Source: Pelagomonas calceolata | Taxonomy: Eukaryota | Length of the DNA stretch: 64,000 nucleotides | Direction: 5' to 3' | Assembly (NCBI GenBank): GCA_918797485.1 | Contig: CAKKNE010000004.1 | Coordinates: 1,302,001 to 1,366,000, forward strand | Part shown: one piece after another, positions 2,811-39,200 of the stretch | Layout: each line of letters begins with the position of its first letter | Numbering within the stretch: the first letter of the stretch is position 1 | Notes under the pieces: model-generated | The model's input: only the letters and a program-made list of their open reading frames with translations | Database searches by the model: none | What the model was told of the DNA's origin: nothing | Translations under genes and position numbers: made by a program

Positions 2811-3294
2811 TTTGTGCTCTTTTGGCACCGGATCAACGCGCTGGCCAAAAAGCTTGCGACCCGAAAAACACGGGTTTTTCTGGAACGATCAAAACGTACT
2901 TGGGGGCGTAACGAGGCGCGAGCATCATGCTGGACGGCCTGAGTGAGAGTTCGCAGCCCGAATTAGGGCGCCAGCGAGCGATGGGGCAGCTTTTCGGGCT
3001 TGAGCGCACATGGAGCAGCCCACGGCTGCCCCGCGGCCGGTAGCGGTCCTCTGGCGAGGCCCGAGGCGTCCAGCGGGGCTGTCATTTTTTCTTCGGGCCG
3101 TTGTTGCCGTAAAGTCCACTAGCTTTCGGGCGGCAGTCTCCGGGAAATGGAGCTACTCTCGTTGGTTACGCGCGCGCAGCTCGTCGCACAACGAACGTAC
3201 AAACGATGAATTGCGGCAGCAGGTAAAACGGGCCGAGGCAGCCCGCTGAGCGAAATTGGAGCCGCTTTCGCGACGCTGGGGCTGCCAAAGGGAG

Positions 3295-6200
3295 ATGGTG
3301 CCGGTAAGGGCAATCCTGTGGAGCATGCTCCTCGCCACGGCGGCCGCGGACGGCACGATCCGCCCCTACGGTGCGGCAAAGGCTGCCCCGCTGCCCCTGC
3401 GCAAGAACGCCGCCGAGGCGTCGACGCCGCACCCTATTCATGAAGAACGCCGCCTCAGCCACGGCGCGCCCCACTGCGTCCAGGACGGAGCCTTTGTGGA
3501 GGACGCCTGCGACTTATGTTATGGGGGCTGCGGCGCCTGCTGGGTCTACCTGAGCGATTCCAATGAAGTGGCTTGTGTCGACGAATCGGTCCACGCGTCC
3601 TGGGACGGCATGGCGACCTGTGTCAATGAAGATACCGTACCGAACCGCTCTACAAAATGGTGCGGCGCGACGCCGGCGCCGACCTACTTGTACTGCGAGG
3701 ACGGTTATGTGGAAGATTGCGAGGGAGGACACTGCTGCCCCGAGTCCTGGGTCGGGAACGGCGACTGCGACGACCACTACGAGTTCCTGCAGCATTGTGA
3801 TTTATCTTGCTACGAGGAGGACGGCGGCGACTGCGTCGAGACGCCGGAACCCACTTCTGTACCCTTCGAGGGCTGTTGTTTTTGGTCCTCGTCCGGCGAT
3901 AGTTGTGGAGACTGCGACCAGCCCGCTGCCAATGTGGACTGGTGCTCGTTCTCGCGGAGCAACTGCGAGAGTTGTAGTAATGCGGAGTGGTGCGGTTCCA
4001 GTGATATCGCGCCGCACGCGCCGGCGCCCTCCGTACGACCAACACCACAACCTTCGCCAAGACCTTCGCAACCGCAGCCGACGGACGCCCAGACCGTCGA
4101 CGGTCGAGTGGTCTTGCCCGACGGCGTGAGTTGCGGTGGAGGGACCTGGCACCTGCCGCAGAGCTGCGAGACCTGCTCTGGATATATTGACGGGCGCTTT
4201 AGTCCGCTGCAGAACTGCGTGTATGGCGTCGGGACGAACGGCCGGTGGAAATGCAAAAACGAAGGGTCGGGCGACATCCTGGAGCTGGACAATTCTTGTT
4301 TTGAGACGCCGGAGCCGTCGGCGGAGCCGACGTCGGGCCCGGCGCGCGAATCAAATTTTGCGTGGCGCCTCTCGACTCATCTCCACGCGACTCGCGCCGG
4401 TCGCGACGGCGTGTTGGGGGGGTCCAGGCTGCCTCGACGCCATCGATGCGATCCACGTAACGCAACTGATGGTCCATCGCACACAGGCCGGAGCCGTCCC
4501 CAGAACCGACGCCCGAGCCGACGACGAACAACGTCATGACCGATGCTAATATCCGGACGGCCGTGCACCACTGGCTCGACGATTCATCGAAGGCCGAACT
4601 TCTGTACGGCCACATAAGCGACTGGGACACGTCTACCGTGACGGACTTTTCATATTTATTCTGTGGAAATAGTCAGTGGTCCGGCTGCCATGGGAACGCG
4701 GGCGCCTTCGACGAACCGCTCAACGACTGGGACACGTCCGCCGTCACGTCGATGGACCGCATGTTCTATTTAGCATCATCATTTAACCAAGATCTAGATG
4801 GATGGGACACGTCTTCCGTACTGACGATGGAGGAGATGTTCGTCGCCGCGTCGGCCTTCGACGGCCGTGTCAATGGATGGGACGTCTCGTCGGTGCGAGA
4901 CATGTCTTCGTTGTTCGAGAAGGCCTCGTCGTTCAACCAAGAGCTTAGTGGGTGGAACCCCGAGACGGCGACGTCCCTCCAAGCCATGTTCTCTGGTGCT
5001 ACGTCCTTCGACCAGAACATCGAAGGGTGGGACGTCAGTTCCGTAACGACGACGCAAGAAATGTTCTACAATGCGGCAGCCTTCAACCGGCCTCTGAATG
5101 ACTGGTCCCTAAATCAAGTCACGAATATGATGGCCATGTTCACGGAAGCGACGTCCTTCAACCAGGATTTGAGTGATTGGAGTCTCGACGGCGTCGCGGA
5201 TGCATCGGACATGTTCTGGGGCGCTACTGCGTTCGACCAAGATCTGGGGTGGTGCATTCCCGCCTATACCGGTATTGGGGGGCTGTTCGGGCAGACGAAG
5301 TGCTACAGTTATGATTGCGGCATCGCGGGAATCGCGGGTGCCAACGGCGAGTGCGAGACGCCGGAGCCTTCAGCAGAACCGACGCCGGAACCGGGCGACC
5401 CGACCGCTTCTCCAGTCTTCGCGCCGACGCCGCGGCCTTCTTCAGAGCCCTCCTCCGAGCCGACGCCGCGGCCGTCCTTACGCCCTTCATCGAAGCCGAC
5501 GCCGCGGCCCACAAACAAACCGAGTCGGCGGCCCACGCCCGCACCGTCGCCGCGCCCTACGCCTAGACCGACGCTCCGGCCGAGCCGGCGCCCGACGCCG
5601 TCGCCCTCTCCACAGCCCGGCGACCCCACGGCCGCGCCGGTCCTCGCGCCCTCTCCGAGGCCCACGCCGGCGCCGTCGCGACGGCCAACGCCGCGCCCGA
5701 CGCGGAGGCCCACGCCTCGACCGTCGCCGTCGCCTTCGGCAAGACCGACGCGGCGCCCGACGCCCGCGCCGACGCCGGTGCCCGGCGACCCTACGGCGGC
5801 GCCCGTCTTCGCGCCGTCGCCGCGCCCGAGCGCTCGGCCGACGCCACGCCCTTCACCGGCCCCGACGCCGCGACCGAGCGTCCGGCCGACGCGCCGCCCG
5901 TCGCCGATGCCCACGCCGCGACCTTCATCAAAGCCGACGAGACGGCCAACACCGCGCCCGACGCCTGCGCCGACCTCGAAGCCCACGCCGCGCCCGTCGC
6001 CGCGCCCATCGCCCCGGCCGACGCCTGTGCCATCGCCGGCGCCGTCGCCAAAACCTACGTCGAGGCCTACCGCGAGCCCGACGCCGCGGCCCACCGCTCA
6101 CCCCACGCCGCGGCCGACGCCAATGCCGTCCAGCAAACCGACGCCGCGCCCGACGCCGACGCCGACCGCGACGCCCGGCAGCCCCACGGCCAGCCCGGTC

Positions 6201-8861
6201 TTCGCGCCGACGCCGCGGCCCACCTCGCGACCGACGCCGATGCCGACTCGGAGACCAACTCCGAAGCCCACGCCGCGGCCCACGCCAATTCCCACGCCTC
6301 TGCCGACGGCGAGGCCCAGCCGCCGGCCCACGCCGCTTCCATCAATGAGGCCGACCCCGGCGCCGAGTCCGCGGCCCACGCCGTCGCCGACGCCCGCGCC
6401 CACGCCGAGGCCGTCGCCGTCGCCCACCGCGACGCCCGGGAACCCGACGGCGGCGCCCGTCTTCGCGCCGACGCCGAAACCGACGCCCCGGCCGACGCCG
6501 GCGCCTTCATCAAAGCCCACACTTGGTCCTACGACAACACCCTTCGAGGGCTGCTGCTTCTGGAGCTCGACCGACGACGTCTGCGCCTCCTGCGACGCGC
6601 CGGCGTCACAAACGGACTGGTGCTCCTTTTCTCGCGATAACTGCGAGAGCTGCAGCAACGCTCAATGGTGCGGCGCCAACGATGTCGCCCCGCACGCTCC
6701 ACTACCAACCCCGCGGCCGACGCCCGTGCCGACGATCTCCGCCACGACCGTCGCGTCGTCGGCTTTGGTGCTCGAGGGCGTCTCCGCAGACGCTTTCACG
6801 GCCGCCGACGCGGCCGCCGTCAAGGCGGCGCTCGAGGCGGAACTAGTCGGTTCGAAAGTGACGGACGTGACCGCGGTGGCCGACGACACTGAAGCTTTAG
6901 AGGAAGCCATCTCCTCGAAGAGCATGCACCGGCGGCTGGCGGAGTCGTGCGTCGTTTCTTTTGTGGTCGAGGCGCCTGGCTCTGATGGAAACGCTTTATT
7001 AACCCGGTTGGCAGATGCGGTCGCCTGCGACGACTTCTCTGAAAGGTTAGCAAACGACCCGCTGTACGCGGCCGTGGATGTGGAAAGATCCCAGACCTAC
7101 ATCCGGGAGCGGTCCGAGGTGGCGGTCATCGTGCCCGTGAACGATGATTCTACAGCCGAGGACCAATCATCCAGTACAAGAGAACCCTTCGACGCCGCTG
7201 GAGCTTCCGGCGGCGCCGCCGCCCTCTTCACGTTAATCGTCGCCGCCGCCGTCGTCGTCCGACGGCGGCAACGCCAACGCAAGGTCTTCGCGCCCGCGAC
7301 GGTCACGACGCTGCTGGACGACGTCGAGGCCGCCGAGGACGTCGTCGAGATCAACATCGACGGGGAGACGGCGACCGTCCCGACGCCGCCCGTGCACGTC
7401 GCGTCGCCGGACCAGGAACAAAGGGTGCGGAGCCTGTCGAAGGAGCCGACGACGCCCTCTGCGGCGCGCGGCTTCCTCGACTCGGCGCGCGGCTTCCTGT
7501 TCGAGACCTTTGCTCGCAGGCGGAAGGTCGAGCGCCTCTTGACCTTCGAGGAGGGCACGGCGTCGGTTCGATGGCCGGGGTCGGAAGATTTGGTGTGGAA
7601 CGGTGGGCTCGCTTCTGCGTCGACGGGCTACTCCCTTGATTGTTCGCCGGCCCAGCAGATGGCGCTCGAGTTGGTGAAGGGGGCTCCCTTGGCACAACGG
7701 GCGTCGACGCTGCGGACGGCGCTCGACTCGCTACGAGTCTCTTGGGAGGTGGGACGCGTGCAATTCACGGTTAGAAGAGACAATTGTTTTGGGGACGCGA
7801 TTAGTGTGTTGGGGGAGCTACCTCCAGAAAAATGGCGCCAGCCCTTCTTCGTGACGTTTCGGGGCGAGCCTGGTTTGGACGCGGGCGGCGTCTCGCGCGA
7901 GTTCTTCTACAAGGCTATCAGTGAATTAATGGACCCGGCGAAGGGCGTCTTTCGCACTGTCGAAGGCAGTACCTATTATCCGAACGACGACTTCGTCGTG
8001 GCCGATGCGTTGCAGGGTTCGGAAGAGCGCGTCCTCACCTTCGCGGGCAGACTGCTCGGAAAAGCGTTACTGGAAGGCCACCACGTCCCTTCAGGATTCA
8101 ATGGTGTCTTGCTCAAGCACCTTCTCTCCTTACCGGTGTCGCTGACGGAGGATCTGCGGTTGCTCGACGCCGAGGTCGCGCGGTCCTTGGAGCTCATCAG
8201 TGCGATGAACGACTCTCAACTCGGCGACCTGGCGCTGACCTTTTCCGTCGCGCGACCTACGCTAAACGGCGTCCACGACATCAGTTTGAGGGGAGATGGT
8301 TGCGAGGAGGTCACGGAGGGCAACGTGAAAGAATTTGCGAGACTAAGAGCCACAGCTGACCTAGGGGGGCAGCAGACCTCGACTATCGGTGCCTTAGTAA
8401 GGGGCTTCCGCGACGTCGTGCCTGGAGCTGCGTTACTCCTCCTGGAGTCGCCCGAGGAATTACGGGAAGCGTTAGCTGGTGTAGAAAACATAGATGAAAA
8501 CGAGTGGCGCCGCGAGACGAGGTTGAGAGGAGCGTTCAAGGACGCGCCTTCTCATAAGGTCGTGGAGTGGTTCTGGGCGTACGTGGCTTCCCTCTCCCAC
8601 ACAAAGAAGGCGGAGCTGCTCCGGTGGGCCACGGGGTCCGCGCGATGCCCCTTAGGTGGGTTCGCGAAGTTGCACGGGCGGGACGGCGTGTTGAGGCCCT
8701 TCACGCTGACGTCGGTGGAGCTGGCGCAGTGCGCGTACCCGCGCGCGCATACGTGCTTCAACCGCATCGACCTGCCGCTGTTTTCGTGTCAGCGCGATTT
8801 GATCGACGCGTTCGCGGTCGCGCTGGACCCGCGGCACGCCGAGGCGTTTTCTATGGACTAA
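3295..8861 (+). CDS. Single-pass receptor-like HECT E3 ubiquitin ligase (signal peptide, Cys-rich modules, DUF285/BspA-like repeats, Pro/Thr stalk, TM, HECT); exons 3295-4331, 4487-8861
   Basis: GT-AG intron 4332-4486 joins ORFs 3256..4539 and 4536..8861 in frame ([18 protein letters not shown]). FNQDLxxWDxSxVxxMxxMF repeats; [17 protein letters not shown] followed by [12 protein letters not shown] motifs [31 protein letters not shown] and catalytic [13 protein letters not shown]. Confidence 0.9.
4340..4486. mobile_element. Degenerate introner element (intron 4332-4486)
   Basis: Ends CGGCGCGCGAATCAAATTT...CATCGCACACAG resemble the family TIR; flanks GTCGGGCC/GCCGGAGC match 5/8; internal CGCCATCGA motif shared with intact copies. 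Confidence 0.65.
5360..6540 (+). repeat. Coding Pro/Thr/Arg/Ser tetrapeptide repeat (PTPR/PSPR) punctuated by PGxPTAxPVFAP units
   Basis: Directly visible low-complexity 12-nt-period repeat within the HECT gene. Confidence 0.9.
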
Positions 8862-8936
8862 TGTATATATAAGCGTATTTTCGTGAGCGGTGGGTAACGT
8901 GTGGATGTGTGCGCACAATCAACATATAGCTTACAC

Positions 8937-9638
8937 TCAGTAGTAGCCCGCGTGGAGCCAGAAACTCACGACGTGTCGGACGAGTTCCTTCGGGAGCATC
9001 GGAAACTTCGGCTCGAAGCTGCGCGTAAGCGTAGCGAGATGGGCTTGCTCGTGTTTCTTCCAGCCGCCGGCGTTTCTGACTCGTTCGATGTACGGGTGCG
9101 TGTTGTTCGTGGGGATCTCAGCGCCCGCGCGGAGTAATAAAGGCCACACACGGAGAAGATTCTGGTCGAGTGTCATCTCGAAAGGTGTCCTCCCAGAGTC
9201 ACTTCTTACATCTATATCAGCACCTGCGGCCAGGAGCATTTTGACGCAATTGGTGCGCGCCTTAGCCTTAGAACTTCCGCTTGCTGCAAAGTGGAGCGCC
9301 GTCCAGTGGAAATCAGACACAGCGTTCACATCCAGGCCCGCTTCGAGTAGTAACGACACCATTTTAATGTTTGCGACGTTAGCTGCATAGTGGAGTAATG
9401 TGTACCCATTATAATCGACCGCTTCCAAACTTGCCCCAGCGTCGAGAAGGAGCCTGAAGCAGGCCGTGATGTCGTCACCCGTAGCGTGGTAGTGTTCGTG
9501 TAAAAAGCACAAGTTGTGAAGAGGCGTTCTACCACGATACTCATTATCATCGGTTGCATCTGGCGACACACCTTCCGCAAGCAATCGCCGGAGCGTCTCG
9601 ACGTCACCGTTGAATGCGGCATCGTGGATGGGTGCCAT
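8937..9638 (-). CDS. Ankyrin-repeat protein
   Basis: MAPIHDAAFNGD, GRTPLH, GYTLLHYAA, WTALHFAA, LLAAGADID, GRTP; conserved-looking tail LPKELVRHVVSFWLHAGYY. Confidence 0.88.
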   Translation of the reverse strand: MAPIHDAAFNGDVETLRRLLAEGVSPDATDDNEYRGRTPLHNLCFLHEHYHATGDDITACFRLLLDAGASLEAVDYNGYTLLHYAANVANIKMVSLLLEAGLDVNAVSDFHWTALHFAASGSSKAKARTNCVKMLLAAGADIDVRSDSGRTPFEMTLDQNLLRVWPLLLRAGAEIPTNNTHPYIERVRNAGGWKKHEQAHLATLTRSFEPKFPMLPKELVRHVVSFWLHAGYY

Positions 9639-10012
9639 TGGGTGAGCGCGAGAGCAGCAGCTCCTGGGCCAGACCAAGAGAGCAGCTTGAGGGCCAGACA
9701 AGAGAGGCTAAGATATGGACGGCCGAGCGAAAACACACAGCCAGGCGCCGCGCGAAGACGGTGCGCCGATAGTGGTCCGCGCAGAGGCGACAAGCTCTCC
9801 ACTGCCAAGGCGGCGTTAGCTAGCGACCGCTAAGACACTAGAAAGCACAGTGCCTCCACTTTGCAGGCCGATAACGGTGCAGCTCACGGTTCTCCGGGTA
9901 AGGTAGACTCGCACCGGTCATAAAAAACGCTGCACGCGTCGACACCGGCGAAAACCGCGCGACAGAGGGTCCCACAGCCACCCCAAAAGAGCGTTGACGC
10001 GCGACCGCACAA

Positions 10013-11071
10013 ATGACGACGCGCCCGGCCGAAGAAGGCGACTACGACTGCGCCATCTGCCTCAGCCCCCCCGACCACCAGGTCCACCAGTGCCGGAACG
10101 GACATCTGTTCTGCGCCGAGTGCCTCGAGGAGTGTTTGAGTAGAGGCAGCGCGAAATGTCCCACGTGTCGAGTGGCGTTACCTAGAGAACCGATCCGCAA
10201 CCTGGTTGCCGAACGAGCGCTAGCGCGGCGGCCCGCGCGCTGCCCGCACTGTTCGTTGGATCTCACGCGAGGAGAACTGCAGGCGCATCTCTTACGGTGT
10301 CCTTCTAGGGTCGTCAAGTGTCAAGGAGAGGGCTGCGACTGGAGCGGGCCCAACGCGCCCGGCGCCTTGAAGGAGCACGAGTCAAAGTGCCCGCGCGCGA
10401 TACTGGCCAAAACATTGATACCGCTCAAGGAACGTATAAACAAGCTGGAGGCGACGGTACGCTCCTTACGAGCTGAAAGAGCAGGTTTGGTCAGTCTGCA
10501 CCCTCCAGGAGCGCCGCTGCGACTCGCCCATGGTTTGTGGCGAGTACGGGAAGAAGACGACACTTTTACCACTGTAGCATTGCCGTCGTTACGACTCACA
10601 GCAGGAAGGTGGTGCTACGAGGTCACGATGTGCAGCGAAGAAATAGTGTTCCCGCAGATCGGATTTGCAAGAGAGGGCTTCCGGCCGGGAGCCGAGCTGG
10701 GGGTCGGCGACGACGAGTTTAGTTATGCGTACGACGGCGACCGGTGCAAGCTCTGGCACGGTAGTAGGCACGACGACTTCGGGCGGGCGTGGGAGGCGGG
10801 CGACGTTATTGGATGCTATTTGGATTTAGATGAAGGTATTATTCTGTTCACGGTGAACGGTGATCTCGTGCCTTTTGATGACGGCGACGAGGATGGCATG
10901 AGACCGGCCTTCGACGGCGTTGTGGGAGGGAGGTGGTTCCCCGCGCTCACGCTCAAGAGCGGGACGTGCCGCGTGAACTTCGGGGACCGGGATTTAGATC
11001 ACCCGGAGGCGCTCGAGGGCTACTCGCCGGTGGCGCTCGCGGCGGCGCTGCACGAGCCGCCGCTGGATTAA
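10013..11071 (+). CDS. RING + TRAF-type Zn finger + coiled coil + SPRY protein (putative E3 ligase)
   Basis: CAIC...CRNGHLFCAEC...CPTCR RING; CPHC...HLLRC and C..C..HESKC fingers; SPRY motifs GRWCYEV, QIGF, GVGDDEFSYAYDG, GDVIGCYLDLD, VNFG. Confidence 0.9.
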   Translation: MTTRPAEEGDYDCAICLSPPDHQVHQCRNGHLFCAECLEECLSRGSAKCPTCRVALPREPIRNLVAERALARRPARCPHCSLDLTRGELQAHLLRCPSRVVKCQGEGCDWSGPNAPGALKEHESKCPRAILAKTLIPLKERINKLEATVRSLRAERAGLVSLHPPGAPLRLAHGLWRVREEDDTFTTVALPSLRLTAGRWCYEVTMCSEEIVFPQIGFAREGFRPGAELGVGDDEFSYAYDGDRCKLWHGSRHDDFGRAWEAGDVIGCYLDLDEGIILFTVNGDLVPFDDGDEDGMRPAFDGVVGGRWFPALTLKSGTCRVNFGDRDLDHPEALEGYSPVALAAALHEPPLD

Positions 11072-30238: not shown

Positions 30239-33200
30239 ATGCTCCGGCGGCTCGCAATAGGCCTGGCCGCCGCCGGGGCGCTGCCCGAGCCGCCCTTCGT
30301 CTGCGACAACACGCAGTGCCGGGTCAAACCGCGAAACGCGAGTGCGGCGCCGATCTGCGCCGCGGGCTACTACACGTGCGCCAGCTGCTGCGACGAGGAC
30401 GCGGACTGCAACTGCGACGGCCACGGCGGCGACGCCTACGACCACGCCTGGCGCACGCCCAAGTGCCCCGAAGGCTACTACGAGTGCGGCGATTGCTGCG
30501 ACCGCGACGCGGACTGCGCCTGCGACGACCAGTGCGAACGCTTTCGAGCCCCGTCGTGCTTTCGTCGGGAACGTTGGAAAGGCGAGCGACAGTACCGACC
30601 GTGCAATTCAGATTTGCCTGCGAACGTGGACTGCAGCCTCGCGTACCACGAGAACGCGTCCAAGCCCCACGGTTGGTGCCCCGTCGGCTACCACGACTGC
30701 GGCCAGCACGACTGCTGCGACTGGAACAGCGACTGCGCGTGCGACGGCGCGTGGCGGACGGGCAACCTCGACGAGCACTGCGACGTCGGGCCGACGGGCC
30801 ACGACGGCGCGCTCTGGGGCTTCGAGTGCAGCGTGCACAAGGGCCTCGACGACCCGCCGGCCTCGGGCCTCAAAGGTTTGGGGGCCACCGAGGCCGGCGC
30901 CTGCTGCGCGGGGCCGAACGAGACCGCCGCGTGCGCGGACGGGTACACGGTCGTGGCGGGCGACGCGCCCTGCGTGTTCACGTGCTGCGAGGGCGCCGTC
31001 GACAACCTGACGACGGCCGCGGACGTGGACGCCGAAGGCTTCTGCTGGGAGGCCCATGCGAACGAGGGGCGGCGCCCGGTGGAGTGGGGCGACTGCTGCG
31101 AATCCGAGTGCGGACTCTTCGTCGCTGGGCCCCGGGGCCGCGGCTACGACGACGCGGTCGCCTACTGCTCACGCATAGGTGCCGAGATCGCGACCATCTA
31201 TAGCGCGACCGAAAACGAGCTGGCGCGCCACGCCTGCGGCGGCTCGTGCTGGATCGGCCTCGAAGAAGTCGGCGGCGACGCGTCGACGCCCAAGGCGAGC
31301 CAGACGTGGCGGTGGAGGGATGGATCGACGGCGAGTTACACGAACTGGGAGGATAGTTACACGAACTGGGAGGATTGGGAACCGAACAATTACGAGGGAA
31401 ACGACGAGAGGAACGCAATTATTCATGATGGCATGTGGTACGACGTGGCCGACGACCATCACATGAGGCCCCTCTGCCGCACCGGCGACGGCACCTCCGC
31501 GTGTCGGACGGTCTACCTTCCGGAAGGGCGGTCCCACGGGGAGTTTGCGGGGTTCCCTCCGCAGTACTGGGAGTATAACGGTATTGATGAAGTGCAGGAG
31601 TGGCGACGACGCGCGCGCGAGGAGTGGTTCCGCGAGGAGACCTGCCGGCCGAAAGCGGACGCGCCGGCGGCGTGCTTCGCGCCGCCGACGCGCCGCGCCG
31701 ACTGCGTCGACGGCGCGTGCCGCGCGCTCAAGCCCGGGGGCGCCGCCCTGGATCGTTTTGTCGATGATTACGGCGCGCTCGCGGTCACGGAGGACTGCCA
31801 CGGCATCACTTACGAATTTCAAGAATGGCGCTGGGGCTTAATTCGCCGCTTTGGGCCGCAGTCCCGGCACTGCGCCGACAACCACACGCTGGCGGGCGTG
31901 GATTACGTCGACGGCGTCGGCACCTGCTGCACGAACAGGAGTTCCGACGACGCGAAGTGCGTCGCGCCCGCGCCGGAATGCTTCCACCGCAGCGGTCCTC
32001 GGCGCTGCGATATCCTCCTGAAGTATTTTGGCAGCATGGACTACGACGGCGAGCACGCCCGCACCCCCCCCTGCGACTTTAGGGGAGAGCCCTACGCCTG
32101 CGACGACCTGCGGTGCGACCCGGCGTCCGGCGCGCTCTACTACGTCCGCGAGGATTCGTGGCGCTGGTGGGGCCGCCTCTGGAGCTGGAACATTAAGAGA
32201 ATCCTCGGCGACCACGCCTGCATGCGTAACTGGTGGCGGGCCGACCTGCGGAGGAACGACCCCTGGCCGGCCTCGCGGAAGAACCGGCGCATGGGCGAGC
32301 GCCAGCGCATCCAGGCCTGCGGCGTGGTCACCGAAGACGGCGACTTCTTCCACGCGCAGCTCGCGGGGGGGAGGGGCTGGGACGAGGCGTGGCTGTACAG
32401 GACCGGCTACGCCAACCACGAGCCGCACCGGGGCCACCCGTGGGACAACTTCTGGGCCTCGACGCGCGCGCCCCGCCGCTGGCGGGGCCTGGACGCGGCG
32501 CCGGCGACCGCGCCGGCCGACGCGTGCGCGCGGGCCGCGGCGCGCGAGTTCCACGGCGGCTGCCTCGGGACCTGCGGGAAGACGTGCGCCGAGCTCGGCC
32601 ACGACCCCGTCCTCTTCGAGAAGCTCAGGGCCGCCGTGAAGAAGTGGCCCGACAAGGGCGGCGGCGACGCGATTCCGGACGCCTGCGGCTTCGCGTCGCA
32701 GCCGGGCGTGGCGGAGATTTGGTATTGGTGGAGTTGGCACCGTATACTCTACAACCCCCACATCGTAACTTGGATCACGGCCAGACAGATCGTCGCGTGG
32801 CTGGGCCTCGGCCTCATCTACGTCGTCGGCGTCGCGGCGGCGTGCTGCGCCTCGCAGCCGGCGTGCCTTGGATACGCGCACCTCCAACGCCTACGGAACT
32901 GGGTCAATCGGCGGATAGAGGACGGGGGCGCGGCCCGCTACTGCTACTTCATCTGCTGCGGCGGCTGGCTCCTCGAGCTGGTCGCGCGCCTGGTGGCGCT
33001 GCTCTTCGCGGGCCTGGAGTTCTGTCGGCTGCTCCTTCGACCGGGCGAGGCGCGCGCGCGCTACGAGAAGTTCCGCGAGCGGCGCCCCTGGTTCAGGCGC
33101 TACGTCGCGCCGTGCCTGGATAAGCTCTCGGCCGGCGTCGCGTCATTTAGGAAGAAGCGGGCCGTCGCCGCGCTTCTGGCAAAGCTGTCCGTCGCCGCGC

Positions 33201-36200
33201 CGCTCGCGTGGAAGGGCCTGAAGAAGGCGTGGAAGGGCCTGAAGAAGGGGACGGCCCGCCTCGGCCGCTGCCTCTACTGTTGCTGCTGCGGCGACTTTTG
33301 GCGTCGACTCCTGGTCAAGCGGCCACCCGCGGCCGTCTACACCGCGGAGGACGGGACGGAGCAGACGGTCCCCTGGGTCGTGGCGCCGGGCCCGCCGGGC
33401 ACGATCGTGACCCGCCCCGACGGCATCAAGGTCAAGGTGCCGGAGGGCGTCCAAAGGGGCCAGCTCTTCTCGCTCGCGGAGGCGGCGCCCGCGGGCGACG
33501 ACGGCGCCGCGCCGAAACACGCCGCCGAGCCGCCGTCGCTCACGGAACGCACCGCGCTCCTCGTGCGCAAGGCGTGGATTATAAAAAAGCGCACGACGGG
33601 CGCCCTGGCCAAGCAAGTATTCGTCCCGCTCCTCGGCGTCGGCGTCCTGTGGTTACTGTACGACACCAGGGAACGAAATCGAAAAGAGCGGAGCACCAAA
33701 GCGAGCGCAGGCTTCGACACGATCCACGGCGACCTCGAGCTCGTCGTGTTCCAGTTCTTCTTCTTCCCGTGGGTCCAGGTCGTCGCCTCGGCGCTGGTGG
33801 GGGACGTTGCGCAAGGCACGCGCGAGGCGACGCGCGCGGCGGGCGGCGCCGACGCGGCCTACTGGCTCGCATCCTTTTTGGTCGAGGGCGTCGCCGTCGG
33901 CGGCGGCGTCGCCGTCGCGATCGCCGCGGGCGCCGCGCCGGGCCTCTTCCGGCGCGCCGGCAAGAGTTTCGAGGTCGCCGCGTTCTTCGAGCTCTTCGCC
34001 CTCCACTGGCTCTTTCTGCTAGCGCTCGTCCTCCAGACCTTTGTGGTGGTCACGTGCCTCCTTCGATCGCAGATCGCCGCGGCGGGGCTCCCGCCCCTGT
34101 TGCACGCGGCCCTGCACGGGTTCTACTTGCTCTGGAACCCGCTCCGGGCCTGGAACCGTCACCGTGGCGGCCGGCTCCGAACGCACTGGACCCTGACGAA
34201 TCGGCCGCGCGCGCACTTCGTCGGCGCGGCTTTCCTGCCGCAGTTCGCGTACGATTTGTTGGTGGACTCGTTCAGCCCGACGGGAAAGCGAGCGGGCTGG
34301 CGGTGCCGGCTCGTCGCCGACGGTTTTGTGGGGGAGCGCTACCCGTGCGGGAAGTGTAGAAAAGAGTGCTGGGAAAAGGCCCCAGGGCCGCGGCTCGGGG
34401 ATTTCGAGCAGTATCTGCAGAGCCGGTCGCTGACGGCGGCGCCCTGCGCCGACGAGCACCTCATGTGCGAGGACGTCTGGCCCTTCTGGTACGAGAAGAC
34501 TGAGGATCGGGGCTGGCGGCCCGAGTCCTCGTGGACGGCCGGGGTCTACTGCATGTTGATGGTGTCCGTGGTGTTTTGGGCGGCGGTCCTGTGGTACGTG
34601 ATCCAGGTCTCCACGTCGGCGGCGCGAGGCAAGGGCAAGGACCTGCTCTTTTGCATCCGGAAGGCGTACTGGCGACCGCCACCGCCGGACGAGGTCGTAG
34701 AGAAGGCGCCGCTCGTGGACCACGACGAGTGGTTCGAGAACGATGAAAGCGCCGACGCGCCGGTCCAGGTAAGAGGCCTCCGGAAGGTCTTCGGGAAGAA
34801 GGTCGCCGTATCCGACGCGACGTTCGCGATTCGCGACTCGGAGATCTTCTGCCTGCTGGGTCACAACGGCGCGGGCAAGACGACCACCATGTCGATGATG
34901 ACTGGAGCGATGGCTCCCGACGGCGGCAGCGCAAATTTCTTCGGGATACGAACGCTTGGCCCCTTAGCTGAAGCGGACGGCCTCGACCGGCTCCGCCAGC
35001 TCCTCGGCTTCTGCCCGCAGCACGACGCGATGTTCCCTCAGCTCACGCTCCGGGAGCACCTCATTTTCTACTCACGGCTCAAGGGCGTCGAGGAAGCTAG
35101 AGCGGAGAACGAGGCGTCTGGCCTGCTGCAGCTCTTCCGCCTCACGGAAATGGCCGAGGGGTTTCCGCTCAAGCTCTCGGGCGGCCAGAAGCGCAAGGTG
35201 ATGATGGCCGCGGCGCTGACCGGCGGGTCCAGGCTCGTGGTCCTCGACGAGCCGACGGCGGGGATGGACCCCGTGGCGCGGCGCGAGGTCTGGACCCTGC
35301 TGCGGGACGTCCGCGTCGACCGGTCGGTACTCCTCACGACGCACCACATGGAGGAGGCCGAAGCATTGGCGGACCGGGTGGCGATCATGGCGGCCGGGAG
35401 CGTGACGTGCTGCGGCACTATATCTTTCCTGAAGCGGCACTTCGGCGGGGGTGACGACGCAGAGGTCGCCGCTCGCCGCAAGGCGGCGGAGGAGGAGGCG
35501 AGGCGGAAGGAGGCGGAGGCCAAAGCGTTAGCGGAACGCATGGCCGCGGCCGGGGCCGAGGAGCGGGAACGATTAGCCGCGGAGAAGGCTCGTCTGGAGC
35601 GGGAGGCGGCCGAGGCTCGAGCCAAGGCCGAGGGCGGCGCGGACACGTCGACCGGCGGCCTTCATGTGGCGGTGACGACGGCTGTCGCGGCGCGCGATCG
35701 ACTCAAAGCGATTTTTGCGCAGCACGTGCCCGGAGCCAAGCTGGCGGCGGCCTCGAAGCTCGAGGAGGACCTCCGCCGGGCGACCGAAAAGGACGCCGCG
35801 AACCCGCTCCTCGGGTCGACGCCGAAGAGCTTTTCGTCATCATTTAAGAGTCCTCTCCTGAACGCGACCCGGGGCGCGAGCTTCTCCGCGTCGCGGAACT
35901 GGGCGGACGCCGAGGCCCCCCTCCTCGAGGACTCCGCGCGCGACGTCACGACGACGTACACCATTCACGCATCCAGGGCACGCGTCGCAGCTCTCTTCGA
36001 GGGGCTGGAGGCCGAGGCCGACGGCTTGGGCCTCGTCGACGTTTCGGTGACGGCGACGTCGCTCGAGGACGTGTTCATAGCCGTCGGCGAGCAGGTCGAG
36101 GGCGCTGCGGCGCCCGTGGAGGCAGAGACGTTGGTTGGCGGGGCCTTGCTGCCGTCGGCGCCGGGCGAGCCGGTGCCGGCGGGGAGGCTCGTCGCGGCCG

Positions 36201-39200
36201 TGGTCCAGTTTCGGCTCCCAGCAGTGCAGATAGATCAAAGTGACCTCGACTCACCTCTTGCTTTCCACACAGGCTCCAACAAATAAGAGACGACCTCGTG
36301 TGGATCAAAAAGTTCGTCCTCGGCGGCGCGGCGCTGCCGGGCGGGCTCAAGCAAGCGGTGGCGCGGGCGCGCGCGAGCAAAGACCACACGACCTTCACGG
36401 TACCCACGAAATTCGCCGTCCTGGTCGCGGCGCTGGCCGGGGCGCCGACCCTCGGCGTGGCCGTGGGCGTGCAGGGAGGCGGCTGGCTCGGCCTGGGTTT
36501 GTGGTTCGCGACCTCCGTCGCTTTTTCAGCTGTCGTTTTTTTGTTGGCGGCACTGGAATGCGGCGTGCGATACTACTGTTTCAAAAGTTCGGTGTCGGCG
36601 CCATGCGCGGTCGCCGGCGGTGTCGTAGGCGCCTTCGTGGGCATGATATGTGTCCTCGTGGGGTGGGAGGCCGTGGCGGGGCCGCTGACGTCGATGGTGG
36701 CCACGGCGATCGCCGTAGGCCTCGAGGCCGGGCTCCGGCCGTACTTTGGGTCTCCAACATCGGTCTTTGGTGCGATCGTGGGTATGGTAGCGGGGCTGAG
36801 TGCGGGGTGGGGTGTGGGCTGGCAAGTGTGCAAGGCGGCGTTGCGGAGATGGAAACCGCCGGGCCGCCGCGCGCGGGCGCGGACCGAAGGCGGCGTCGCC
36901 GGATTCTTTGTTGGCCTCGTCGTGGAAGTTTTGGGCTCCGTCTTCGCCTCGGCGTTTTGTTCCGCCGGGATACATGGATCGATCCTGGTGCTCCTCCAAG
37001 TGGCGGCGGCGGCAATGCCGCTGGTCGTGCGCGCGCAAATGCCCGGCAAAGGAAAGCGGGCGTTCGGTTTCAAAAGTAGATACGCGGAGTACTACAACAC
37101 CCTCGTCGCGGGGGTCCTGGTGGGCGCCTATTTTCTTGTGGCGGGCTTCGTGGTGGAGCCATACGTCCGCGAGCGCGCCAGAGGTCTGCGGAATCTGTTG
37201 GCCGTCTCGGGCCTCGACACTTTGACGTACTGGCTGGGAAACTGGCTCAGCGACGCGCTGGTACTCGTCGGCGGTGCCGTCTGCGTTGTTTTCATGTTAG
37301 CGGCGACGCGCATGGCCTACCGCAAACGGTTGTGCAGCAGCGCGCCGACTTACGCGCAGCTCCACGCTGCCGCTCGGAAGGGGGATCTCGACCTCGGGCC
37401 CTACAACGCGACCACCACGTCGCTAGCAACCGCCTTCCACGACCGGTACCCGGGGGGCTTTGAAGAAGACCAGAACGGTATTTGGAGCTCCGAGTCCTAC
37501 GATACCATCAAGCAGTGGTACTGCGGCAGCGTCTGGGACCGCAGCATCGGGGCCGGGGCCTGGCAGAACGCTACCAAGTACGTCGTACGCCGCTGGATGG
37601 AACGCTGGCCGTGGTTGTGGATTTTACTGCCGCTGTGTAGCGCGGGGATCGTGAGCTTCTCGCACTTCGCGACGACGACGTTCGACTCGCCGCTCATCGC
37701 GGTCGCGTCGACGCCCATTTTCATCGGTCTCCTGGGCGGGGCGGCACCGGCCGGGCTCGCAGGACTTTGGTGGGTCGCCACCACCAAACCCGACCAGCTC
37801 CTATACCAGGAATTCTTCTGTAAGATAGGGTGGCTCGCGTCAATCGCAACGCCGTTCGGCAACCTGGCGATCCAGGTCTGCAAGGTGGCCTTCCACCCGC
37901 AGCTGAAGCGCGGGGGATTTCTCGAGGCGTCGGGACCCGGACCTTTATCGAGGCAGCCCGCGGACCCGCCTTTACCAAGCGGCGGGGCGGCAGTTTTCTT
38001 CGCCCTTTTCCACATCATACTTTATGAAGGAATAGTCGTCTTTAAAGATCGACGGGCCCTGCGCCCGCTCGCCTGGGTGAAGACGCGGGTCTCCAAGGTG
38101 CGCGCGAACGCGATGCCCGACGACGTCGCCGCGGAGCGCGCGCGCGTCGCGGCACTCACCGGCGCGGGCGACGCCGCGAGCGCGGGCGACGCCCTGTCGA
38201 CGAACGAAGACGACTTCCAGATTGTGGTAGACGAGCCGGAGGAGGAAGCGCCGCCGTCGCGGCCGCCGCCGACGAGCCTTTCCACCGCCGTGCGCGACAC
38301 CGTCGCCATGCTGCGGAACGTGCCGCCGGGCGACGACCCGTACCCGCCGTCACTATCTCTAAACGCCGCACCGGCCGACCGCGACGGCCTCGTCGTCTCG
38401 GACCTGCGGAAGATCTACCCGCCGCGGTTCTTCGGCGGTGCGGCCGTCGAGTCCGTCCAGTGCGCGGCCTTCGGCGTCCCGACGGGCCAGGTCTTTGGTT
38501 TACTAGGCGCGAACGGCGCCGGCAAGACAACGACCGTGTCGATGGTCTGCCGCGCCGTCGAGCCGACGTCCGGGGACGCCAAGGTCGCGGGGAAGAGCGT
38601 GCTGGCCGACCGCCTGCGTGAAAAATCAGCACGTGAGTGAGGTTCTTCCACGCCATCGAGCAGACGCAATCACAGGGACAACGGCGCGTCGATGGCGGGG
38701 CGCCGTGAAATTTGATTACCACACAGGCCGACTTCGAGGACGCGGCGAAGGCGCTCGGCGTCGTCAACCAGAAGAACGTCCTCTGGGACCACCTGAGCTG
38801 TCGAGACCTGTGTGGAAATCAACCAGTGCGCCGGGTGCACCCAACAATTATTCACTAAGTCATTTCTCGGCAATGACGCGGCCGTCCTGGCTCGGTCGAG
38901 CGGTGAGGAACCGGCATCGCCACGCCATCGAGCAGGCGCCGCGTCGATGGCGTGGAGGTCGACGCGGCGATTCATTAGAACGCGCCGTAAAATTTTGATT
39001 TTCACACAGGTCGAGACCATCTCTGTCTCTTCGCGCGGCTCCGGGGCGTCGACATCGAAGGAGACGCGCGCCACGCCGCGGAGCAAGCGCTCGCCGTCGT
39101 CGGTCTGTCCGACCACGCCGACAAAGCGGCGGGCCGCCTGTCGGGGGGCATGAAGCGCAAGCTGGCCGTCGCGGTGGCGCTGGTCGGCGGCCCCTCGGTG

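Follow-up and report, generated by a model that had tools for sequence, protein, structure and literature searches.

A receptor-like HECT ubiquitin ligase gene with an adhesin-like ectodomain in Pelagomonas calceolata

We examined a gene on the plus strand of a 64,000-nucleotide stretch of the Pelagomonas calceolata contig CAKKNE010000004.1 (hereafter the window, to which all coordinates refer). This gene very probably encodes an ectodomain, a transmembrane (TM) segment and a HECT ubiquitin ligase domain in one protein. An earlier note, made from the sequence alone, had proposed such a receptor-like HECT architecture; we found that it holds, and that it holds for a whole family, with a TM segment predicted and conserved in the relatives.

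The gene and its transcripts

The window has long plus-strand frames at 3250-4539 and at 4470-8861 that are fused in frame by the removal of 4332-4486, and the resulting spliced coding sequence of 1803 amino acids (aa) contains no internal stop. The coordinates of the start codon (ATG at 3295), the splice donor (GT at 4332), the splice acceptor (AG at 4486) and the stop codon (8859-8861) are exact, and the features of the gene are collected in Table 1. The 5′ leader holds an upstream open reading frame (ORF) of 6 codons at 3206-3226, out of frame with the gene.

Table 1. Features of the HECT gene and its product, in window coordinates
Feature	Position	Strand	Basis or remark
Coding exon 1	3295..4331	+	Transcript contigs start at about 3150-3164
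Predicted signal peptide, aa 1-18	3295..3348	+	n/h/c pattern by eye; ends A-x-A
Putative 36-aa prodomain closing with RRL (aa 52-54)	3349..3456	+	Resembles the RXL domain of diatom Silicanin-1
Four Cys-rich extracellular modules with Pro/Thr linkers between them	3472..4302	+	Sequence reading
Intron, GT-AG, 155 nucleotides	4332..4486	+	Splice reads and contigs
Coding exon 2, including stop	4487..8861	+	Transcript contigs stop at 8876-8877
DUF285/PARCEL domain, 8 repeats and caps, aa 362-635	4533..5354	+	Pfam, NCBIfam
Mucin-like Pro/Thr/Ser/Arg stalk, 395 aa, aa 636-1030	5355..6539	+	Composition
Second copy of 6-Cys module, aa 1031-1078	6540..6683	+	Absent in L020, found in paralogue L032/P0077
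SEA-like ferredoxin-fold domain, aa 1098-1228	6741..7133	+	AlphaFold, fold search, motif counts
Single predicted TM helix, aa 1252-1270, with basic stop-transfer, aa 1271-1278	7203..7283	+	Hydropathy, AlphaFold helix
Small beta-rich pre-HECT module, aa 1356-1410	7515..7679	+	Clade conservation, AlphaFold
HECT E3 domain, aa 1411-1803	7680..8858	+	Pfam, fold match
Catalytic Cys1769, in HTCFN	8754-8756	+	Motif
-4 Phe1800	8847-8849	+	Motif

We found that the joint 4331>4487 is crossed by 47 raw RNA reads (11, 3, 5 and 28) in all four stranded polyA runs, which derive from one sample of unspecified conditions. The same joint is present in the assembled contigs of all four other runs, namely three studies of the same organism, whose RNA status is presumed, and one marine metatranscriptome. 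The orientation of the reads along the gene agrees with plus-strand RNA. Six reads of two runs have an alternative joint lying 24 nucleotides earlier and in frame; as 12 letters are ambiguous, it can be put down either to minor use of a GC donor or to the loss of one repeat unit. No further copy of the intron was found in the window or in 97 fetched loci, and the orthologue L020 lacks it.

The ectodomain and the HECT domain are also connected beyond the splice site. Two contigs of X1 covering 3164-6216 (spliced) and 6187-7281 overlap by 30 nucleotides with no difference and have similar depth (360 and 325), and 6187-8780 is covered by one contig in X4 and likewise by one in X6. Furthermore, the 1753-aa ORF of P0001, complete in a transcript, has the same layout, DUF285 and HECT included, and the metagenome contigs L020 and L021 carry this layout as one intronless ORF of 1585 aa with conserved neighbours. 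Because the transcripts and the intronless orthologue join the ectodomain to the HECT domain, we conclude that this is one gene and not two; a split gene or a mis-assembly is rejected on the overlapping contigs and on the single ORFs of P0001 and L020. The claim of the earlier note that one intron links the two parts is borne out by the splice reads, and transcripts splitting them, which it had named as a refutation, were not what P0001 and L020 showed.

Architecture of the predicted protein

From the N-terminus, the modules are a signal-like peptide, the RRL piece, the Cys modules, the DUF285/PARCEL domain, the stalk, a second Cys-module copy, the SEA-like domain, the TM segment, a disordered linker, the beta module and the HECT domain. 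The protein is predicted to be a type I single-pass membrane protein. Its signal peptide and TM segment are called from hydropathy, from the positive-inside pattern, from a helix in the AlphaFold model and from their conservation among relatives. The best hydrophobic 19-mer (aa 1252-1270) has a Kyte-Doolittle score of 2.21, with the runner-up at 1.33; it is followed by RRRQRQRK, and the net charge is +6 after and -3 before it. The hydropathy of the signal peptide is only 1.32, and comparable N-termini are found in P0001 and L020. We take this peptide not to be of the plastid type, as the aromatic residue after the cut is absent.

In the ectodomain, the repeat region matches Pfam DUF285 (PF03382, E = 3e-81) as well as the NCBIfam PARCEL repeat models (TIGR02167). 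Eight W-D/N repeat motifs are found at aa 392-577, the final seven at a spacing of 25 aa, and a comparison of the region with PDB sequences gave no match. The Cys module at aa 190-236 is repeated at aa 1031-1078. No Pfam family matched the four Cys-rich modules, and a search for relatives of these modules in longer proteins returned three matches among 1163 candidates, all orthologue-like. The segment at aa 130-182 may be akin to a Notch LNR; Pfam gave no family for it at E up to 5.

The juxtamembrane domain of 130 aa was predicted by AlphaFold on family alignments to be ferredoxin-like (mean predicted local distance difference test, pLDDT, of 84.8). A fold search against 48,161 chains placed ectodomains of animal surface proteins at all of the top seven ranks (Z 7.5-8.0, root-mean-square deviation (rmsd) 2.7-4.4, 93-108 residues aligned), among them PCDH15 MAD12, a dystroglycan complex, a MUC16-type SEA, CELSR1 and Gpr126. 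The entry titles name PCDH15 MAD12 and the MUC16-type SEA, and we take the matched ranges of dystroglycan, CELSR1 and Gpr126 to be SEA domains too. A separate fold search gave Z 9.0 for the domain, its Atlas SEA cluster score of 0.77 serves as a lead only, and Pfam gave no SEA match. Collected in this way, the evidence makes the SEA-like assignment a lead of middling strength.

Like PCDH15, MUC16, dystroglycan, GPR126 and CELSR1, the protein has a predicted ferredoxin-like domain next to the membrane, a mucin-like stalk above it and, linking strands 2 and 3, a loop that is a candidate for cleavage, but the identity to these SEA/MAD proteins is just 6-15% and the loop, predicted at low confidence, bears a basic RRL (aa 1161-1163, 6930-6938). 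The autoproteolytic motif of the MUC1 SEA domain is G-S, which this loop lacks. An RRL-like motif is located 79-142 aa ahead of the TM segment in 16 of the 21 members of the clade described below that have enough upstream sequence. The other RRL, at aa 52-54, has a parallel in diatom Silicanin-1 of silica deposition vesicles, in which a signal peptide is followed by ~30 residues ending in RRL, the RXL domain; silaffins are reported to lose their RXL to a protease (PMC5525289). By analogy, we infer that the prodomain is cleaved at RRL52-54, and processing at both RRL sites would be a reasonable expectation.

The HECT domain matches PF00632 (E = 2.8e-52) over profile positions 3-298 of 306. The motif [10 protein letters not shown] begins at aa 1767, and a Phe at position -4, a residue with a role in HECT ligases, is present. 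Among solved structures, SMURF1/2, Rsp5 and Itch come closest in sequence (E = 1e-49) and the best fold match is Rsp5 (Z 30.1, rmsd 4.0, 367 residues aligned). Pairwise ratios of non-synonymous to synonymous substitution rates (dN/dS) for the HECT domain are 0.057 against L018, 0.084 against L020 and 0.101 against L022, rough values as dS is high, which point to strong purifying selection. Pfam found no C2, WW, PA, RING or zinc-finger domain in the protein, and a zinc-finger motif is likewise absent. A Pfam search with six small modules, the pre-HECT module included, gave nothing significant. A profile of the pre-HECT module matches all 20 long-ectodomain rows besides the window protein, which the search set omitted, and gives weak or no matches in oomycete and diatom rows; the module is thus conserved in the receptor-like clade and may not extend to the wider family.

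These results agree with most of the anatomy set out in the earlier note: its ~8 repeats, ~400-aa Pro/Thr stalk, TM segment with basic stop-transfer and intact HECT domain all have counterparts above. For its DUF285/BspA-like label, the DUF285/PARCEL half matched and the Pfam BspA-type leucine-rich repeat family did not. The SEA-like domain and the two RRL motifs are additional to that note.

A family with swapped ectodomains

The earlier note had called for a search for relatives combining a TM segment and HECT with varying ectodomains, and such relatives exist. A first homologue search gave 21 proteins. Apart from P0001 and one fragment, they included nine of pelagophyte type with stalk, TM segment and HECT, three from oomycetes with TM segment, zinc-finger-like motif and HECT, and several of diatom type without TM segment. 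A profile was then run against 1.84 billion representatives and its best 150 matches were taken, some of which matched through the Pro/Thr stalk alone. Because the profile had stalk and TM columns, it favoured TM-bearing proteins, and the counts given here describe the set found and are no census. A tree of 143 rows was built from 211 proteins and the window protein after dropping 42 cluster mates (P0022-P0064 except P0050), P0002, P0011, rows with no HECT and rows with fewer than 300 profile positions, and after splitting two fused models.

The window protein falls in a clade of 32 rows (FastTree support 99) in which all the named members are pelagophytes: Aureococcus anophagefferens (AURANDRAFT_71870, KAK7231392.1), Aureoumbra lagunensis (three), Chrysophaeum taylorii and Pelagomonas calceolata (CAH0369136.1). 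The databases label the members as 'HECT-type E3 ubiquitin transferase', 'ubiquitin protein ligase' or hypothetical. A TM segment lies upstream of HECT in 25 of the 32 rows, recognised by a hydropathy scan in 24 of them and by eye in P0074. The remaining seven start within the cytoplasmic part, so that a TM segment is predicted in every informative member (25/25). In 21 of these 25 rows the sequence is more positive after the TM segment than before it. The catalytic motif is found in 29 of the 32 rows, the remaining three having truncated or garbled ends.

For 58 rows hand-picked from the 143, including four outgroups, an IQ-TREE analysis (LG+G4) recovered 17 receptor-like rows with support 100/99 and a sister pair with 100/96. 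P0212, a full-length cluster mate of one row of the sister pair, has a signal peptide, a MAM domain (E = 1.2e-16), a TM segment and HECT. A separate clade of 14 rows (100/99) includes Saprolegnia and Pythium proteins; 13 of its rows have a TM segment and most a RanBP2-type zinc finger, and the oomycete relatives place just 5-60 residues outside the membrane. A single origin of the pelagophyte and the oomycete-type TM clades was unrecovered in the free tree and unrejected (approximately unbiased (AU) test, p = 0.112). The receptor-like, TM-zinc-finger and TM-less diatom-type proteins, together with two multi-pass HECTs, form a clade of 54 rows (100/99) apart from the Rsp5-like and HUWE1-like controls; its zf-RanBP HECTs come from Saprolegnia, Pythium, Lagenidium and Aphanomyces, and the fungal WW-HECT P0018 falls outside it.

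Class VI HECT ligases specific to heterokonts, termed HECTHe4, carry zf-RanBP (in the Phytophthora infestans members) or a bare HECT (Grau-Bove et al. 2013, PMC3673628). Judged on the tree, in which the 2013 HECTHe4 sequences are absent, the 54-row group is likely HECTHe4: it shares the heterokont range, and the window protein groups at 100/99 with the oomycete zf-RanBP2-type HECTs and the diatom HECT-only proteins. The window protein differs from HECTHe4 in lacking a zinc finger and in having a predicted signal peptide, an ectodomain of 1250 aa and a predicted TM segment. In the main text of that survey, whose architecture figures lie outside a text search, 'transmembrane' and 'Aureococcus' have no match, nor do HECTHe4, transmembrane, TMHMM or RanBP in the supplement text files searched, the architecture drawings of which could bear on novelty. 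We found no literature description of ectodomain-TM-HECT proteins in a search with most subscription papers beyond its reach, and the family is apparently undescribed, a receptor-like ubiquitin ligase on a different catalytic class.

Across the clade, the part that runs from the stalk through the SEA-like domain, the TM segment and the pre-HECT module to HECT is mostly retained, and the distal ectodomain is swapped. The source organism expresses at least one second family member with a different ectodomain, because cross-mapped reads, with loose ends at 8734 and 8781 and a T8750C change, match the C-terminus of P0050 when translated by eye.

Some further proteins of the wider set have layouts of their own. 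P0148, P0207, P0161, P0164 and P0114 combine a small Cys-rich outer domain (with a weak PSI match, E = 0.024, for P0207), a TM segment, a RanBP2-type zinc finger and HECT, so that another receptor-like layout exists beyond the pelagophyte clade. P0199 and the Phaeomonas parva protein P0211, HECTs of the wider clade, have ~10-11 predicted TM segments, against 3 in P0180, which is related to P0199; no Pfam family matched the membrane part of the three. Directly 3′ of the family member in L034, an ORF of 1274 aa (L034:2498-6319) opens with a signal-like peptide and RRQL, resembling the start of a secreted or surface protein.

Possible function, alternatives and neighbouring genes

We give a probability of roughly 0.55 to the reading that the protein is a receptor-type ligase like RNF43 and ZNRF3, built on HECT and driving ubiquitin-dependent uptake. 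A receptor-type ligase is the simplest reading because the part from stalk to HECT is kept in the family and the distal ectodomain exchanged. The ectodomain would pick a ligand or an adjacent membrane protein and so set specificity, and the long stalk, raising the DUF285 and Cys head far above the membrane, would favour binding in trans. A cut at RRL52-54 would strip the prodomain, and one at RRL1161-1163 within the SEA-like domain would yield a non-covalent two-chain receptor, able to shed or to answer pull. The cytoplasmic HECT domain would ubiquitinate the bound or nearby membrane protein, or the receptor itself, passing ubiquitin from a charged ubiquitin-conjugating enzyme (E2) via Cys1769 to membrane-proximal lysines and leading to endocytosis and degradation. 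The outcome would be a Nedd4/Rsp5-like down-regulation at the membrane without C2-WW domains or an adaptor.

The comparison with known systems frames this reading. HECT ligases form their own ubiquitin thioester and set the chain type, which RING ligases do not. The known receptor-like ligases RNF43/ZNRF3 and the complexes MEGF8-MGRN1, ATRN-MGRN1 and GDU1-LOG2 are RING-based (10.1101/2020.05.25.113944), and the human TM ligases surveyed in PMC4971459 are among RING types only, many acting in quality control at the endoplasmic reticulum (ER). With RNF43/ZNRF3 the window protein shares an extracellular part, one predicted TM segment, a cytoplasmic E3 and a likely role in down-regulating membrane proteins, but it is a HECT in a single chain without PA or RING and has a larger, swapped ectodomain, so that the likeness is one of layout only. 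Nedd4, Rsp5, SMURF and Itch, to which its HECT domain is closest in sequence and fold among solved structures, likewise have membrane proteins as targets. These soluble ligases get to the membrane via C2 and PY-motif adaptors, whereas the window protein has neither C2 nor WW and is a predicted integral membrane protein. Human AREL1/KIAA0317 is presumably also a HECT with a predicted N-terminal membrane anchor, on which a literature search found nothing, but it misses a large ectodomain; its Filamin-HECT family is found in animals and choanoflagellates (PMC3673628).

Several findings weigh against this reading. Raw depth falls to 0.07-0.9 across the GC-rich repeat 5858-6351, and no RNA contig covers the whole gene. 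RNA depth climbs 1.7- to 3.3-fold near 7587 and rises further toward the 3′ end; this step (7300-7660) lies just 5′ of the in-frame Met1404, itself just before HECT, and is compatible with the 3′ bias of polyA libraries, although it may also reflect a shorter HECT-only RNA for a soluble HECT. The predicted TM segment is Ala/Val-rich and only moderately hydrophobic. The Z scores of the SEA-like domain are middling, with an unrelated transposase at Z 7.4, and a Z under 8 may indicate a common fold; moreover, the sub-branch P0050/P0079/P0080/P0082 lacks the RRL motif. Within HECT, the Phe-Gly of SMURF1, whose Phe we take to be an E2 contact, aligns with Asn-Gly here, the Asn being common to P0001, P0003 and L020. 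Because this putative contact is changed and the sub-branch stem is long (0.77), E2 use may differ.

Recognition of microbes or viruses, suggested in the earlier note, received no direct support. Such a sensor, in which the DUF285 head would bind microbes or particles of a giant virus, HECT would be switched on by clustering or cleavage and ubiquitin chains would signal defence or phagocytosis instead of mere disposal, would be in line with an ectodomain that diverges faster than the enzyme: identity to L020 is 49% for DUF285 and 82% for HECT, and in the paralogue L022 HECT is 78% identical and the ectodomain unrelated. It would also suit the flux of DUF285 genes between Aureococcus and its giant virus (10.1101/2024.10.30.620910; the main text of this pelagophyte pangenome preprint has no mention of HECT) and the variability of PARCEL repeats as surface domains (PMC2996958). 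However, ectodomain dN/dS is ~0.23-0.24, with dS near saturation and no domain-wide positive selection; DUF285 is confined to orthologues of the window gene (a scan of 13 other family clusters, of which several are N-truncated, found none); the DUF285 relatives at 17 viral loci are only 34-44% identical; and the gene is expressed in all four raw runs. On this balance we consider the sensor unlikely. For the DUF285 block, an origin in viruses or mimicry is rejected, nothing close being found among those viral loci.

We are equally sceptical of a role in quality control of the secretory pathway or cell covering, in which the protein would reside in the Golgi, in endosomes or in vesicles that form the theca, its stalk and Cys modules would constitutively hold wall material or cargo of the lumen, and HECT would sort membrane proteins with no ligand gating. 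The prodomain layout shared with Silicanin-1 of silica deposition vesicles (PMC5525289), the short outer parts and zinc finger of the oomycete relatives, which fit a simple membrane tether, and the many RING-TM ligases of ER quality control (PMC4971459) speak for it. On the other hand, a 1250-aa ectodomain with mucin stalk, DUF285 and SEA-like domain, and MAM in the sister lineage, is typical of the cell surface, and the swapping of distal domains among paralogues suggests different specificities.

An adhesin with a passenger or weak HECT, or an artefact (a mis-assembled fusion, or a mainly soluble HECT from an internal start), could draw on the trough in the stalk, the depth step, an X1 contig depth of 325 against 727, Met1404 and the changed E2-contact residue, but is very improbable given the contigs that overlap without differences or run from 6187 to 8780, the independent single ORFs of P0001 and L020, the TM segment in 25 of 25 rows and a HECT domain strongly purified by selection.

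Carried further, the receptor-type ligase could be one of a set of pelagophyte 'receptor ubiquitin ligases', a HECT counterpart of receptor kinases, in which stalk-borne interchangeable ectodomains (DUF285, MAM, Cys modules) would sense particles, viruses or neighbour cells, an RRL-cleaved SEA-like domain would pass on binding or pull as in Notch and adhesion G-protein-coupled receptors, and HECT would in turn be activated, its ubiquitin chains being the primary signal, all within an overlooked membrane-anchored HECT lineage found across stramenopiles; this proposal is tentative and we hold it to be doubtful. If the ectodomain-TM-HECT family with swapped ectodomains is true, it would be a new coupling of outside signals to ubiquitin: the receptor-like E3s in the papers cited here are all RING-based, and no transmembrane HECT appears in the text of the pan-eukaryote HECT survey (PMC3673628). 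According to that survey, Nedd4-like HECTs occur only in apusozoans and opisthokonts and stramenopiles are without C2-WW Nedd4 ligases, and the family suggests a route for surface-protein turnover in the latter. Its hosts, Aureococcus, Aureoumbra and Pelagomonas, are bloom-forming, globally abundant picoalgae, and with soluble HECT constructs and several natural ectodomains the family is a directly testable system. The oomycete TM-zinc-finger HECTs and the multi-pass HECTs of other ochrophytes are apparently unremarked as well.

Downstream of the HECT gene, and convergent with it, lies an expressed ankyrin-repeat gene (8940-9638, minus strand) with paralogous loose read ends, absent in L020 and L021. 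A RING-SPRY gene (9998-11068, plus strand) and a candidate gene with a motif that recalls ubiquitin C-terminal hydrolases (12685-13728, minus strand) are both conserved in L021 and are no more than 5 kb away from the HECT gene, making three ubiquitin-system genes in ~10 kb. The receptor-PARP gene, which the earlier note had paired with the HECT gene, occupies 13973-18461 on the minus strand and encodes an NMT1-like binding domain, CUB domains, a TM-like segment, WWE and a PARP split over two frames. A functional partnership is rejected as unsupported: the syntenic locus L021 retains five other neighbours in order and has neither room nor match for the PARP gene, which the comparison indicates was gained or lost between the window and the L021 relatives and is no conserved partner. 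Further along, an open frame of 2073 aa (30065-36283, plus strand) starts with a signal-like peptide and is followed by ABC-transporter-like frames to ~40145.

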